From: Candidatus Levyibacteriota bacterium
GTDB taxonomy: Bacteria; Patescibacteriota; Microgenomatia; Levybacterales; UBA12049
DNA length: 53,719 nt
Reading direction: 5' to 3'
NCBI GenBank assembly: GCA_016180725.1
Contig: JACPAR010000015.1
Location: 1-53,719 of the forward strand
Every line of letters starts with the position of its first letter. Position 1 is the stretch's first letter. A program made the position numbers and the translations under genes. This document shows positions 12,923 to 15,481 of the stretch, piece by piece. The notes beneath the pieces were generated by a model. It was not told the DNA's origin. It did not search any database and saw nothing but the letters and a program-made list of their open reading frames with translations.

Positions 12923-12950
12923 AAAAAAACCTCTCTAAAAAAGAGAGGTT
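12923..12950 (-). terminator. Riboswitch expression-platform terminator that also overlaps the RBS
   Basis: AACCTCTCT-TTTTT-AGAGAGGTT followed by a T-run that abuts the ATG; GAGG lies in the 3' stem. Confidence 0.8.
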
Positions 12951-12987
12951 ATACTTTTTTCCCACTTCGCATTAAGCTCCGCGGGAC

Positions 12988-13125
12988 GCATCCTCCCCTT
13001 TAAGGGCTGGGGTTAGCACCGTGCTCGAATGAAAGGTCCTTCGTCGCAAAGCTCCTCAGGACGACCTTCGGTCGGTTGCTGGGTGAGTCATCGGGCCAGT
13101 CCCCTCGTCACCACTCTTTATGTTT
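12988..13125 (-). ncRNA. SAM-I clan riboswitch (SAM-I or SAM-I/IV)
   Basis: CATAAAGAG..GAGGGGACTGGCCCGATGA..CAGCAACC..CACGGTGCTAA..GGATG; upstream of a Met operon. Confidence 0.9.
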
Positions 13126-13135
13126 AATTGTTATT

Positions 13136-13187
13136 ATTATAAAGATATTCTTCGCCACTTGTCAAGATGGGCTTTTTGTGGTATATT
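13136..13187. promoter_or_regulatory. Overlapping divergent sigma70 promoters
   Basis: Minus strand TTGACA(13165-13160)-N18-TATAAT(13141-13136); plus strand TTGTCA(13159)-N17-TATATT(13182) with extended TG. Confidence 0.75.
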
Positions 13188-13207
13188 ATTAATAATCGAA
13201 AACTAAA

Positions 13208-13459
13208 AGCGCCCAAGCGAAGTCACGATTCGCGATGCTGATCCCCAAAATGGGATACGGAAGTTGAACCGTAAAATCCAACAGTCGATGTCAGCCTAGC
13301 GGAGTCGGCCTGAGAGTCTTAAAGGAAAATACTTTAAGAAATAAGGATGGGACCGCGGGAGGTCCCGATTTTAGTTTTTAGGGGTTAGGTTTTAGGTATT
13401 AGAGAAACTAATAACTACAAACTAATAACTAATTACTAACTATCGCCTCTCGTTCCTTA
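13208..13459 (+). ncRNA. T-box riboswitch, probable His (CAC) specifier
   Basis: Stem III TCTTAAAG/CTTTAAGA; TAAGGA-[TGGGACC bulge]-GCGGGAGG pairs with CCTCTCGT-TCCTTA (13446-13459); short 5' stem with CAC in its loop; hisS downstream. Confidence 0.75.
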
Positions 13460-14091
13460 CTTTACTCGTTGAGGATTGTCCAAGAAACGAGTGGGATCGT
13501 ATTGCTAAAGAAGGCTTACAAACTGTTGAGCAAGTTGGATTTATAGCAACAAATATACCATTCCCCACTCTTACCATGATGGGCGGAGAATTAAGTATTA
13601 ATGGTACGCTTGCATTCGCCAGACGACTGGACGGATCCGGGCAACTACAAACAAGCGGACTTTCTTCGTTGATAGATTACGAAAATAGAAATGGAACAAC
13701 ATCCATTAGAATTAACATGCCTTACAAAACTGATCGTTCAATTTTCGCAAATGAAGACGGAAAAAACAATATTGTTTTATTTGAAGGTATTGGCTATTTA
13801 TGCACTAACAAACAATCTGCCCCTACGATGGGCGAACTTGTTACCTTAGCTGAAAAATACAAATTACCTGCTTTTGGAATAGTTATCTATAGCAATAATC
13901 AAATTTTTCCGTTTGTTTATGTTGGTAAAACGCAATCTATGGTCGCTGAAAGTGCTTGCGGCTCTGGAAGCATTGCGTTGAATATTCTTACCGGTCAACA
14001 ACGGATAGTACAGCCAACAGGAAAAACAATAGAGGTTAATCATGTTAAAGATAGATTTACTATAACGGCTAAAGTTGATATGATAAGGTAA
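13429..14091 (+). CDS. DapF/CntK (histidine racemase)-like protein, 5' end lacks a start codon (possibly truncated)
   Basis: Frame open from 13429: TLLVE..EQVGFI..MMGGELSING..ESACGSGS..QPTG; first ATG is at 13576. Confidence 0.65.
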   Translation, partial: LITNYRLSFLTLLVEDCPRNEWDRIAKEGLQTVEQVGFIATNIPFPTLTMMGGELSINGTLAFARRLDGSGQLQTSGLSSLIDYENRNGTTSIRINMPYKTDRSIFANEDGKNNIVLFEGIGYLCTNKQSAPTMGELVTLAEKYKLPAFGIVIYSNNQIFPFVYVGKTQSMVAESACGSGSIALNILTGQQRIVQPTGKTIEVNHVKDRFTITAKVDMIR

Positions 14092-14109
14092 AGATATAAA
14101 GACACAAAC

Positions 14110-14205
14110 ACTTATCCTTCGACTTCGCTCAGGCCTTCGGCTCTGAGGCTCAGGTCTTCGACTCCGAAGACGCTCAGCCTCGAGGAGCTCGAAGAGATAA
14201 AGTTT
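14110..14205. repeat. Nested palindromic element cluster upstream of hisS
   Basis: CCTTCGACTTCGCTCAGG, GTCTTCG-ACTC-CGAAGAC, CTGAGGCTCAG, inside ACTTATC/GATAAAGT. Confidence 0.7.
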
Positions 14206-14215
14206 TATTAATTAC

Positions 14216-15481
14216 ATGAAAAATGTTGAACCAAAAACTTTAAAAGGATTTAGAGATTTTTTACCCAAGGAGACAAAAAAGAGGCAGTATGCAATTGATA
14301 CCTTGAAAAAGGTGTTTGAGTCCTATGGCTTTGAGCCACTAGAAACTCCGGCGCTTGAATACGAAGAGGTTTTACTTGGTAAATACGGCGAAGAAGGAGA
14401 TAAACTTATGTATCGGTTTGTGGATAACGGTGGCAGAAGAGTTGCATTGCGATATGACCAAACCGTTCCCCTTTCCCGCGTTGTTGCGCAGTACTCGCCT
14501 CGCGGCGGAGCGGGCCAGAATGAATTATCAATGCCGTTTAAAAGATATCAGATTCAACCAGTTTGGCGGGCGGAAAACACGCAAAAAGGAAGATTTAGGG
14601 AATTTTTACAGTGCGATGTAGATATCGTAGGCACTACCTCTCCCCTTTCTGATGCCGAGGTTATTGCTGTTGCTACAAACGCACTCAAAACCTTAGGTTT
14701 TAAAGATTATAAAGTTTTAATAAACGATAGAAATAATTTTTCTTACTTTCAGGAATCGATGAATCTATCCCAAGAACAAGTAATGGCAGTTATTCGCGCT
14801 ATTGATAAACTCAAAAAAATTGGCAGAGATGGAGTTATAAACGAACTTAAGGAAAAAGGATTTTCTTACGATCAGGCCGCAACTGTAATCGACAGCATCA
14901 GCAACATTAAACCAACAGAATATATTCTTGAGATTATGCAAAACCTTAAAAAAATGGGCATTAAGGAAGAGCGCATTCAATTCTATCCCACACTTGCTCG
15001 AGGCCTCGACTACTATACAGATTTAATTTTTGAAATTGAGATCGAAGGGTATACTGCCGGTTCTGTGTGCGGTGGAGGCAGATATGACAAACTCATTGCT
15101 ATGTTTTCCGACAAAGATATTCCTGCTGTTGGTTTTGCCTTTGGGTTTGACAGATTGATTGAGGCGATGGATGCCCTAAAGTTATTTCCAGATAATTTGG
15201 AAACAACCAAGGTGCTTGTAACTATTTTTTCTAAAGAACTAAAAGAAAAATCCATTGAAATCAGTTCTCGACTTCGCTCGAACAATATTAATACCGAAAT
15301 TTACCTAGACGAAAATGCAAAGCTAGAAAAACAACTAAAATACGCAGATCAAAAAGGAATCCCTTATGTTGTTGTTATTGGCCCTGAAGAAGCAGAAAAA
15401 AACCAAATAACCCTTAAAAACATGCAGACTAGAGAGCAAAAAACATTTAATCAAGAAGGTTTAGTCAAAGAACTAGCCTGA
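14216..15481 (+). CDS. hisS: Histidyl-tRNA synthetase
   Basis: KGFRDFLP, LRYDQT, GRFREFLQCD, RGLDYY, GGGRYD, GFAFGFDR, anticodon-binding C-terminus. Confidence 0.98.
   Translation: MKNVEPKTLKGFRDFLPKETKKRQYAIDTLKKVFESYGFEPLETPALEYEEVLLGKYGEEGDKLMYRFVDNGGRRVALRYDQTVPLSRVVAQYSPRGGAGQNELSMPFKRYQIQPVWRAENTQKGRFREFLQCDVDIVGTTSPLSDAEVIAVATNALKTLGFKDYKVLINDRNNFSYFQESMNLSQEQVMAVIRAIDKLKKIGRDGVINELKEKGFSYDQAATVIDSISNIKPTEYILEIMQNLKKMGIKEERIQFYPTLARGLDYYTDLIFEIEIEGYTAGSVCGGGRYDKLIAMFSDKDIPAVGFAFGFDRLIEAMDALKLFPDNLETTKVLVTIFSKELKEKSIEISSRLRSNNINTEIYLDENAKLEKQLKYADQKGIPYVVVIGPEEAEKNQITLKNMQTREQKTFNQEGLVKELA

Follow-up and report, generated by a model that had tools for sequence, protein, structure and literature searches.

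A putative tRNA-His-sensing T-box leader with an ultrashort Stem I upstream of a histidine-racemase-like gene and hisS in a Candidatus Levyibacteriota genome

In the stretch of 53,719 nucleotides (nt) analysed here, contig JACPAR010000015.1 of a Candidatus Levyibacteriota assembly (GCA_016180725.1), hereafter called the window, a leader RNA at 13200-13460 on the forward strand precedes a histidine-racemase-like gene (hisR-like) and hisS, which encodes histidine--tRNA ligase. Comparative sequence evidence makes it probable that this leader is a histidine-specific T-box with an ultrashort Stem I, that such leaders are widespread in the bacterial class of the host, that they switch in the way proposed below, and that 89 nt were omitted from the assembly directly behind the leader of the window. 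The intergenic region 12923-13460 contains two divergent leaders, of which the one on the forward strand is the T-box RNA.

Structure, conservation and specificity of the leader

The elements of the leader and its immediate surroundings are, all on the forward strand:

13159-13187: promoter-like site, TTGTCA-17 nt-TATATT with TG before the second hexamer, 10 of 12 consensus matches
13208-13239: ultrashort Stem I, 33 nt, with the 7-nt end loop GUCACGA at 13222-13228
13208-13211 with 13236-13239: outer helix of Stem I
13217-13221 (GCGAA) with 13229-13233 (UUCGC): inner helix of Stem I
13224-13226: specifier CAC (His) in the Stem I end loop, followed by the purine G at 13227
13241-13256: Stem II, AUCCC/GGGAU
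13257-13282: Stem IIA hairpin (ACGG/CCGU), F-box-like CCGUAA and IIA/B pseudoknot
13263-13266 (GUUG, from the IIA loop) with 13279-13282 (CAAC): IIA/B pseudoknot
13286-13307: linker hairpin between the Stem II domain and Stem III
13317-13339: Stem III (13317-13324 with 13332-13339), -7.4 kcal/mol
13342-13362: T-box sequence, with UAAGGA at 13342-13347, the bulge UGGGACC at 13348-13354 and the A2 5' strand GCGGGAGG at 13355-13362
13348-13379: hairpin T1, UGGGACC/GGUCCCG, 7 pairs, -13.1 kcal/mol, followed by AUUUUAGUUUUU
13368-13445: long AU-rich hairpin in the antiterminator end loop, -17.9 kcal/mol
13446-13459: antiterminator 3' strand, CCUCUCGU at 13446-13453 followed by UCCUUA at 13454-13459
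13461-13462: joint at which the contig lacks the terminator 3' strand, U-run, Shine-Dalgarno (SD) sequence, ATG and approximately 11 codons of its relatives

Folding of 13342-13460 yielded the antiterminator with 14 pairs, of which helix A1 contributes six and helix A2 eight on either side of the 7-nt bulge, at -38.1 kcal/mol, and none of 200 shuffled sequences folded as well. The same was true for Stem III (0 of 200 shuffles). A preliminary description of this DNA had reported a complete antiterminator preceded by Stem III and a 5' stem carrying CAC at 13224-13226 in its terminal loop. Both were found in place, and the predicted fold reproduces the antiterminator helix. The CGGAAG/GAACCG hairpin that had been compared to Stem II exists as well, but at 13258-13272 it represents Stem IIA, and the true Stem II at 13241-13256 had gone unmentioned. 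A short-range antiterminator drawn by cmscan (AGGA/UUUU with CGGG/CCCG) was rejected, as it cannot form in the relatives, which keep the long-range helix. The promoter-like site ends approximately 12 nt upstream of the leader start and was assigned on its consensus match only.

A DNA search of 41 related genomes detected two homologous leaders, in genomes G009 and G004, which together with the window formed the seed of a first covariance model (R1). Matches to R1 were obtained in 35 of 151 genomes of the same family, in 40 of 151 genomes of the same class (a tally that includes one unpublished genome, G232, not used otherwise) and in 7 of 151 genomes of a phylum-wide sample, three of them being the genome of the window and two others of its class. 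A second model (R2), built from 19 relatives and excluding the window, recognised the T-box site as the sole match in the 53.7-kb window with 154.2 bits and an E-value of 7.6e-43, although R2 is partly dependent on the window because its 19 relatives were found and aligned with R1. The Rfam T-box model RF00230 aligns end to end at 13203-13375 with 31 bits (E 1e-4 on 1451 bases). The scan with T-box models proposed in the preliminary description gave a complete alignment, but at a score below the gathering score of 93 bits; the score is low because 75 Stem I positions of the model are replaced by 8 nt.

In 39 aligned matches (alignment A3), pairing is seen in 94.5% of the cells, and both sides have changed in 36 of the 40 pairs, a level not attained in any of 500 shuffles, in an alignment that was fitted to the model structure and thereby favours pair counts. 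The IIA/B pseudoknot provides a cleaner test of covariation because it is absent from the covariance model: 92.3% of its cells are paired, and 36 doubly changed cells compare with 8.3 in shuffles (0 of 500 as high). Across 38 distinct relatives, all five inner pairs of Stem I are changed on both sides, with an invariant loop in the His-type copies. All five pairs of Stem II (96.8% of cells paired) and all nine pairs of Stem III show compensatory changes, and all seven pairs of the linker hairpin are changed on both sides among the relatives, its inner pairs being imperfect in the window. Of 39 relatives, 38 keep the antiterminator 3' strand, and compensatory variants occur among them, for example GCGGAAGG with CCUUUCGU. 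The covariation in related leaders that the preliminary description had suggested looking for is therefore present in Stems I, II and III and in the pseudoknot, and the loss of CAC from homologous leaders, which it had named as grounds for rejection, did not occur: the loop GUCACGA is kept while the stem below it co-varies.

The antiterminator end loop measures 12-14 nt in most relatives, as opposed to the long AU-rich insert of the window. This insert (13368-13445) is an imperfect palindrome of approximately 75 nt without another copy in its own genome; a part of it (13406-13439) has counterparts in short repeats of tandem-like type that occur in several related genomes, among them G023, G031 and G039. 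The G009 leader carries a different insert at the same site, and in one low-depth metagenomic contig (X1) the segment 13366-13443 is replaced by TTTTTTAG.

Several features suggest that the leader is specific for tRNA-His. The single tRNA-His of the genome (anticodon GUG; contig C14) has an encoded G-1 and the discriminator C73, therefore its CCCA end is complementary to the UGGG of the bulge. By the combination of a GUCACG loop with a UGGG bulge, 39 of 69 distinct model matches were classified as His type, and 27 of these 39 precede a recognisable histidine gene (hisS, hisG or hisG-like, hisD, HisR-like). Downstream of the His-type leaders lie hisG or a hisG-like gene (13 of 39), hisR-like followed by hisS (9), a phosphoribosyltransferase-like open reading frame (ORF; 3), hisS alone (2), a longer HisR-like gene (2), hisD (1, with 495 bits) and a gene for an ArgE/DapE-type deacylase (1), and in eight cases no family was matched or the flank was too short. 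Two of the hisG calls are confirmed (188 and 198 bits), one lies below the NCBIfam but above the Pfam cut-off, and the others rest on BLASTP only (E 1e-5 to 1e-37). Sister leaders with other loops serve as internal controls for an end-loop specifier: a GUUGCGA loop (UGC) with a UGGA bulge precedes cysK/CBS, a GUCGCGA loop (CGC) with a UGGU bulge precedes argH, the loops UUUCCUG and UUUCCCG (CCU and CCC) with a UGGU bulge precede proB and proS, and in the genome of the window itself a UGG loop with a UGGC bulge precedes trpE/trpG. Codon, UGGG/C73 match and downstream genes together support, on comparative grounds, the earlier proposal of a tRNA-His-sensing switch in front of hisS.

The tRNA-His gene itself is found directly downstream of a His leader in six relatives (L038, L135, L137, L141, L157 and L148). 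Four of these tRNA-His genes begin immediately behind the terminator U-run:

L038, 3874-3948: tRNA-His gene
L135, 1283-1355: tRNA-His gene
L137, 1367-1441: tRNA-His gene
L141, 1743-1815: tRNA-His gene

In such relatives, tRNA-His would control the transcription of its own gene; we found no report of such self-control among the papers listed by our literature search. In the genome of the window (G000), approximately 27 nt from the 3' portion of the tRNA-His gene, comprising T arm and acceptor strand, are tandemly repeated right after the gene (C14:1119-1215).

The leaders L055/L153, L155, L156, L157, L160, L164 and L148 keep Stem I with its GUCACGA loop, Stem II and IIA/B, and have no UGGGACC bulge or antiterminator. 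They contain a plain hairpin with a U-run instead and stand before hisS, hisR-like with hisS, or tRNA-His; a fragment of a catabolic gene, histidine ammonia-lyase (hutH), lies downstream of L155. The leader L118 (G102:C4, 1501-1676) combines a His-type platform, with UGGGACC and T1, with the loop UUCCCCA, lies before an ORF of 314 amino acids (aa) without family match and may represent a specifier change in progress. The phosphoribosyltransferase-like protein (approximately 200-300 aa; 19 bits only with Pfam Pribosyltran) is found under a His T-box in three genomes (L105/L005, L108 and L120) and is a candidate histidine-related enzyme, judged by its position. In L105/L005 its ORF spans 1641-2489, and in L005 a uridine phosphorylase gene comes next. 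The short-Stem-I Trp T-box of the own genome is located at C27:15447-15671 on the reverse strand (loop UGG, bulge UGGCACA), where the trpE/trpG-like calls were judged from N-terminal sequences only. A third T-box of this genome, at C11:41688-41955, is of the long-Stem-I type and precedes a 690-aa ORF without assigned family.

Proposed switching, the joint at 13461/13462 and hairpin T1

In the relatives, the antiterminator 3' strand is followed by a loop and by a GAACGGGAGG-like strand with which it can pair, then by 6-7 U and, usually at once, by ATG. A terminator strand with a U-run of at least 4 U was detected in 36 of 39 relatives; L140 fails the pattern. The downstream strand also contains the SD sequence: in many relatives, GGGAGG is part of this strand, at a distance of 6-8 nt from ATG. 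We propose that the anticodon GUG of tRNA-His would pair with CAC in the Stem I end loop, aided by Stem II and the IIA/B pseudoknot, and that the CCCA 3' end of uncharged tRNA would pair with the UGGG of the bulge, thereby stabilising the antiterminator of 13342-13362 with 13446-13459. RNA polymerase would then read on into hisR-like and hisS. Otherwise, the antiterminator 3' strand would form a terminator with the downstream GAACGGGAGG strand and its U-run, which would also bury the SD sequence.

The position of GGGAGG raises the question whether the family acts mainly on translation, with the hairpin as SD sequestrator and the U-run as mere spacer between SD and AUG, a mode that would agree with the association of ultrashort Stems I with translational control in the literature (PMC7583486). 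We consider this rather unlikely, because at least 4 U follow the hairpin in 36 of 39 copies, including copies with a more distant start codon (L030, L134), and because four copies precede a tRNA-His gene, which is not translated. The U-run directly before the tRNA-His gene in these four leaders indicates that control there would have to be transcriptional rather than translational. As the SD sequence lies within the hairpin 3' strand, both modes may act, and may do so together.

In the window as deposited, the leader does not continue in this way. The sequence GUUCCUUAC runs straight into ACU UUA CUC GUU GAG, encoding T-L-L-V-E, which corresponds approximately to codon 14 of the family consensus MxxxKFLIAxGNSTLLV, and the GN motif of the family is absent. 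Logan contigs of four public groundwater runs were compared with 13100-14300 (31 contig records listed among 188). One X1 contig (1105 nt, 28.6x) contains 13105-13461, then 89 additional letters, then 13462-14120, and is otherwise identical to the window, and an X3 contig has the same insert at 13461/13462. Contigs of X3, X5 and X6 end or begin exactly at 13461 and 13462, and among the contig records listed none joins 13461 directly to 13462. The insert size of 89 nt fits the 78-86 nt present at the same place in L043, L030 and others. The missing terminator is thus probably an assembly omission or a minority variant.

Alternatively, the loss of 89 nt may be real in the strain, which would fuse the antiterminator 3' strand to codon 11 of hisR-like, leaving a pseudogene and no canonical terminator; in that unlikely event, hisS would be read through constitutively or be controlled only by T1. 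The deposited contig does read directly across 13461/13462, the contig breaks at this joint in X3, X5 and X6 could mean that two forms coexist, and comparable losses occur elsewhere: L082, a Daviesbacteria record with a larger loss, retains the leader up to T1 and its U-run, a hisR-like remnant of 56 codons and hisS, and five further loci have only C-terminal hisR-like fragments. This is outweighed by the absence of a direct junction among the contig records listed, by the 28.6x depth of the listed record that spans the joint with the 89 letters and its agreement with the X3 contig, by the match to the spacing in L043 and L030, and by the remaining 210 codons, which are open and keep all family-invariant residues. 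A true deletion with a pseudogene was initially weighed as the primary reading and was demoted to a minority form by the read contigs. Contig joints 13365 to 14240 and 14133 to 14216 (sides of 19-22 letters) are probably derived from other organisms, the pieces at 14216 differing at 3 of 41 positions, and were not used; neither were the uncovered parts of the stretch in X5 and X6, for which the same origin is probable. The sequence AACGAGUGGGA (13487-13497) was considered as a decayed terminator 3' strand and rejected, because its translation can be aligned with the protein family.

In hairpin T1, the bulge and the beginning of A2 pair with the first bases of the antiterminator loop, and the bulge that binds the tRNA 3' end is thereby masked. 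A T1-type hairpin (GGGACC-GCGGGA-GGUCC, approximately -8 kcal/mol) followed by at least 5 U (5-9 U) is present in 35 of 39 His-type leaders, and a scan flagged T1 as terminator-like in the window and in L038. In L038, L120, L146 and L158 the register is shifted (ACCGC/GCGGU or GACCGC/GCGGUC), which argues for selection on hairpin and U-run rather than on the sequence. T1 was seen only together with a UGGG bulge, and non-His leaders with other bulges have no T1. Four leaders contain no T1 with U-run by our criterion: L129 and L154 have no hairpin, L115 has a weak T1 (-6.6 kcal/mol) and no U-run, and L105 has a strong T1 (-13.2 kcal/mol) with an interrupted U tail. The antiterminator helix cannot prevent the formation of T1, because its 3' strand is located downstream of T1. 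T1 with its U-run is most likely a pause or an early checkpoint that the tRNA 3' end would have to open. An analogous pause, immediately ahead of the terminator strand of glyQS, has been proposed to leave time in which the 3' end is sensed (PMC5951919). That T1 is itself the regulated terminator, with tRNA CCCA on the nascent UGGG preventing the GGGACC/GGUCC hairpin and regulation proceeding without a canonical terminator in the window and L082, appears quite improbable: its frequency in His-type leaders (four of them with shifted register), its terminator-like appearance, its restriction to UGGG bulges and its retention in both copies without downstream terminator speak for such a role, but four intermolecular pairs would have to beat a GC-rich hairpin of 5-7 pairs before A1 exists, and L129, L154, L115 and L105 lack the combination of T1 and U-run.

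Several points weigh against the proposed T-box and its switching. As given, the window contains neither a terminator nor an SD sequestrator, and the frame 13429-14091 has no ATG, GTG or TTG before 13576. The content of the 89 letters was deduced from their length and place only; an exact scan of a metagenome collection made for this content gave no match. According to a review, T-boxes that act on transcription generally depend on a long Stem I bearing the elbow-binding motif (PMC7583486), and terminator action in the present family is therefore a proposal. If T1 were an efficient terminator, it would block expression whatever the antiterminator does. Finally, Rfam at its gathering score gave no match in the whole window (31 versus 93 bits), and the pair counts were taken from a fitted alignment.

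The hisR-like protein, hisS and the genomic surroundings

The genes and the spacer downstream of the leader are:

13459-14091, forward: HisR/CntK-like coding sequence, 5'-truncated as assembled
14112-14205, no strand assigned: GC-rich structured repeat between hisR-like and hisS (14092-14215 folds at -42.9 kcal/mol)
14216-15481, forward: hisS, histidine--tRNA ligase, 421 aa (TIGR00442, 407.6 bits versus a cut-off of 286.75)

The preliminary description had taken 13429-14091 as the racemase-like gene; this is an open frame in which no start codon occurs before 13576 and likeness to the family begins only with the codon at 13459. Its observation of motifs typical of the CntK/DapF fold held, as EQVGF, MMGGE and ESACGSGS are all present. 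Direct matches to curated models are weak: the NCBIfam HisR model NF052224 gave 47 bits (E 2.7e-12) versus a cut-off of 400 and the CntK model NF033599 32 bits versus 300, and the Pfam copy used, which does not include the precomputed label PF26317, assigned no family to the racemase-like frame or to two full-length homologues. A database search returned 129 homologues, mostly of 210-220 aa, the best of which (55% identity) stems from a Candidatus Daviesbacteria record. A profile of 17 homologues matched solved HisR (9CR1) with an E-value of 1.8e-26 and the structures 6L4L, 6JIS and 6JIW, deposited as 'diaminopimelate epimerase', with E-values from 9e-21 to 5e-20; 6JIW is CntK C72S (PMC11602996). 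The comparison with CntK/DapF that had been recommended as a check thus links the family to solved HisR and CntK chains.

HisR uses Cys67 and Cys209, and turnover is greatly reduced in its C67S mutant (PMC11602996). The family motif ELCING aligns with MMGGEF-C67-GNA of HisR and ETACGSGS with C209. In the window protein, Ser occupies the position of Cys67 (ELSING) and Cys that of Cys209 (ESACGSGS), so that the pair of catalytic cysteines is incomplete. Among 120 homologues, the two sites are occupied as follows:

First site (HisR Cys67): Cys in 82, Ser in 30, no match in 8
Second site (HisR Cys209): Cys in 111, Ser in 1, no match in 8

Judged by these residues, a two-thiol racemase activity of the window protein is doubtful. 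Its role beside hisS may be slow racemisation, proton transfer in one direction or the binding of histidine.

The HisS protein consists of the domains tRNA-synt_His (PF13393) and HGTP_anticodon (PF03129). In 35 of 80 loci hisS lies at most 4 kb from hisR-like, in 34 of them on the same strand, and in most relatives it abuts or overlaps hisR-like. An R1 leader is located directly upstream of hisR-like in 9 of 80 loci, with hisS downstream in all nine. A lack of linkage between the racemase-like gene and hisS in relatives, which the preliminary description would have taken as a refutation, was accordingly not what we observed. Elsewhere in the genome, 11 sites match the repeat at 14112-14205 over 18-39 nt, including one within the C11 T-box leader, and it looks like a small dispersed intergenic repeat. 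Searches of this genome, with a completeness of 80.5%, yielded neither hisG nor hisD; their absence fits histidine auxotrophy and is not proof of it. D-His salvage in an auxotroph is a possibility raised by the preliminary description.

The second leader of the intergenic region, divergent from the T-box, is an S-adenosylmethionine (SAM, S-box) riboswitch candidate at 12985-13126 on the reverse strand, which scored 41.5 bits versus the Rfam cut-off of 44.4 (E 1.2e-7) and contains a 43-nt insert. Its promoter at 13165-13136 is a perfect TTGACA-18-TATAAT, and it is followed by a terminator-like hairpin (12950-12928) and a gene for a pyridoxal-phosphate-dependent enzyme of Cys/Met metabolism (12922-11747).

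Implications and relation to known systems

In the open papers that our literature search covered, with subscription papers and supplements outside its scope, no description of such leaders or of the gene order T-box, hisR-like, hisS was found, in line with the statement of the preliminary description that it knew of none for this combination; the papers on ultrashort Stems I that were listed deal with actinobacterial or engineered T-boxes. The short-Stem-I model of TBDB was applied to Actinobacteria and truncated class I hits only (PMC7778990), and the supplementary tables of TBDB might list sequences of the present kind. As far as these searches show, the leader is a T-box of an undescribed variant. 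Tentatively, and with some doubt, the comparative data may be extended to the view that the class uses T-boxes of several specificities (His, Arg, Pro, Cys, Trp) as a general set, which have no elbow platform and would act by termination, with T1 as a second, earlier checkpoint, with self-control of the tRNA-His gene and with control of a HisR-like protein that travels with hisS. If terminator action with an ultrashort Stem I is true, it would contradict the rule by which T-boxes of the terminator type require a long Stem I, and the kinetic reasoning that sensing during transcription depends on the elbow platform would have to be revised; T1 would then be well suited for examining how a pause assists tRNA sensing. 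The leaders escape standard annotation, and as a consequence amino-acid regulation in reduced genomes is under-described. The histidine regulon defined by them comprises hisS, hisG, hisD, tRNA-His, the HisR-like proteins, the unnamed phosphoribosyltransferase-like protein and other proteins, providing leads for genes without family. The frequent link between hisR-like and hisS suggests a role near histidine charging, which is not discussed in the HisR paper (PMC11602996).

HisR from Fusobacterium nucleatum (9CR1, 9CR6) and CntK from Staphylococcus aureus (6JIW) are cofactor-independent histidine racemases (PMC11602996), with which the window family shares GN(S/I)T, EQVGF, MMGGE and E..CGSG as well as the second catalytic Cys. 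It differs from them in size, approximately 215 aa versus 254-271 aa, in the Ser at the position of Cys67 in the window protein and in 30 of 112 motif-matched homologues, and in its context of hisS and a His T-box, hisS being without mention in the HisR paper.

With the T-boxes of Firmicutes (RF00230; glyQS, tyrS), the leader has in common the logic of specifier-anticodon and UGGN-NCCA pairing, Stem II, IIA/B, Stem III and the 7-nt bulge, and in the relatives of the window also a terminator that overlaps the antiterminator 3' strand. Unlike in these T-boxes, Stem I has 33 nt instead of approximately 90 nt and is devoid of K-turn, AG bulge and distal T-loops, so that the long Stem I of class I is lacking, and a pause or terminator hairpin is built from the bulge in the window family.

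A close structural parallel is provided by the ileS T-boxes of Actinobacteria, in which Stem I is likewise ultrashort (Sherwood, Grundy and Henkin 2015) and for which structures from Mycobacterium tuberculosis and Nocardia exist (PMC7583486). According to this review, an intermediate or ultrashort Stem I goes together with translational control and occurs mostly in Actinobacteria. In both groups, Stem I is no more than a short helix that presents the specifier in its apical loop and lacks the distal platform that binds the tRNA elbow; it is followed by Stem II, IIA/B, the bulge and an antiterminator-like helix with insertions on top of A2. In contrast to the actinobacterial ileS leaders, those described here belong to hosts of the candidate phyla radiation and have specificities for His, Arg, Pro, Cys and Trp rather than for ileS only. 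They also carry a hairpin with U-run in 36 of 39 copies, four of them before tRNA-His, which argues against control by translation only, and the additional T1 hairpin with its U-run that masks the bulge.

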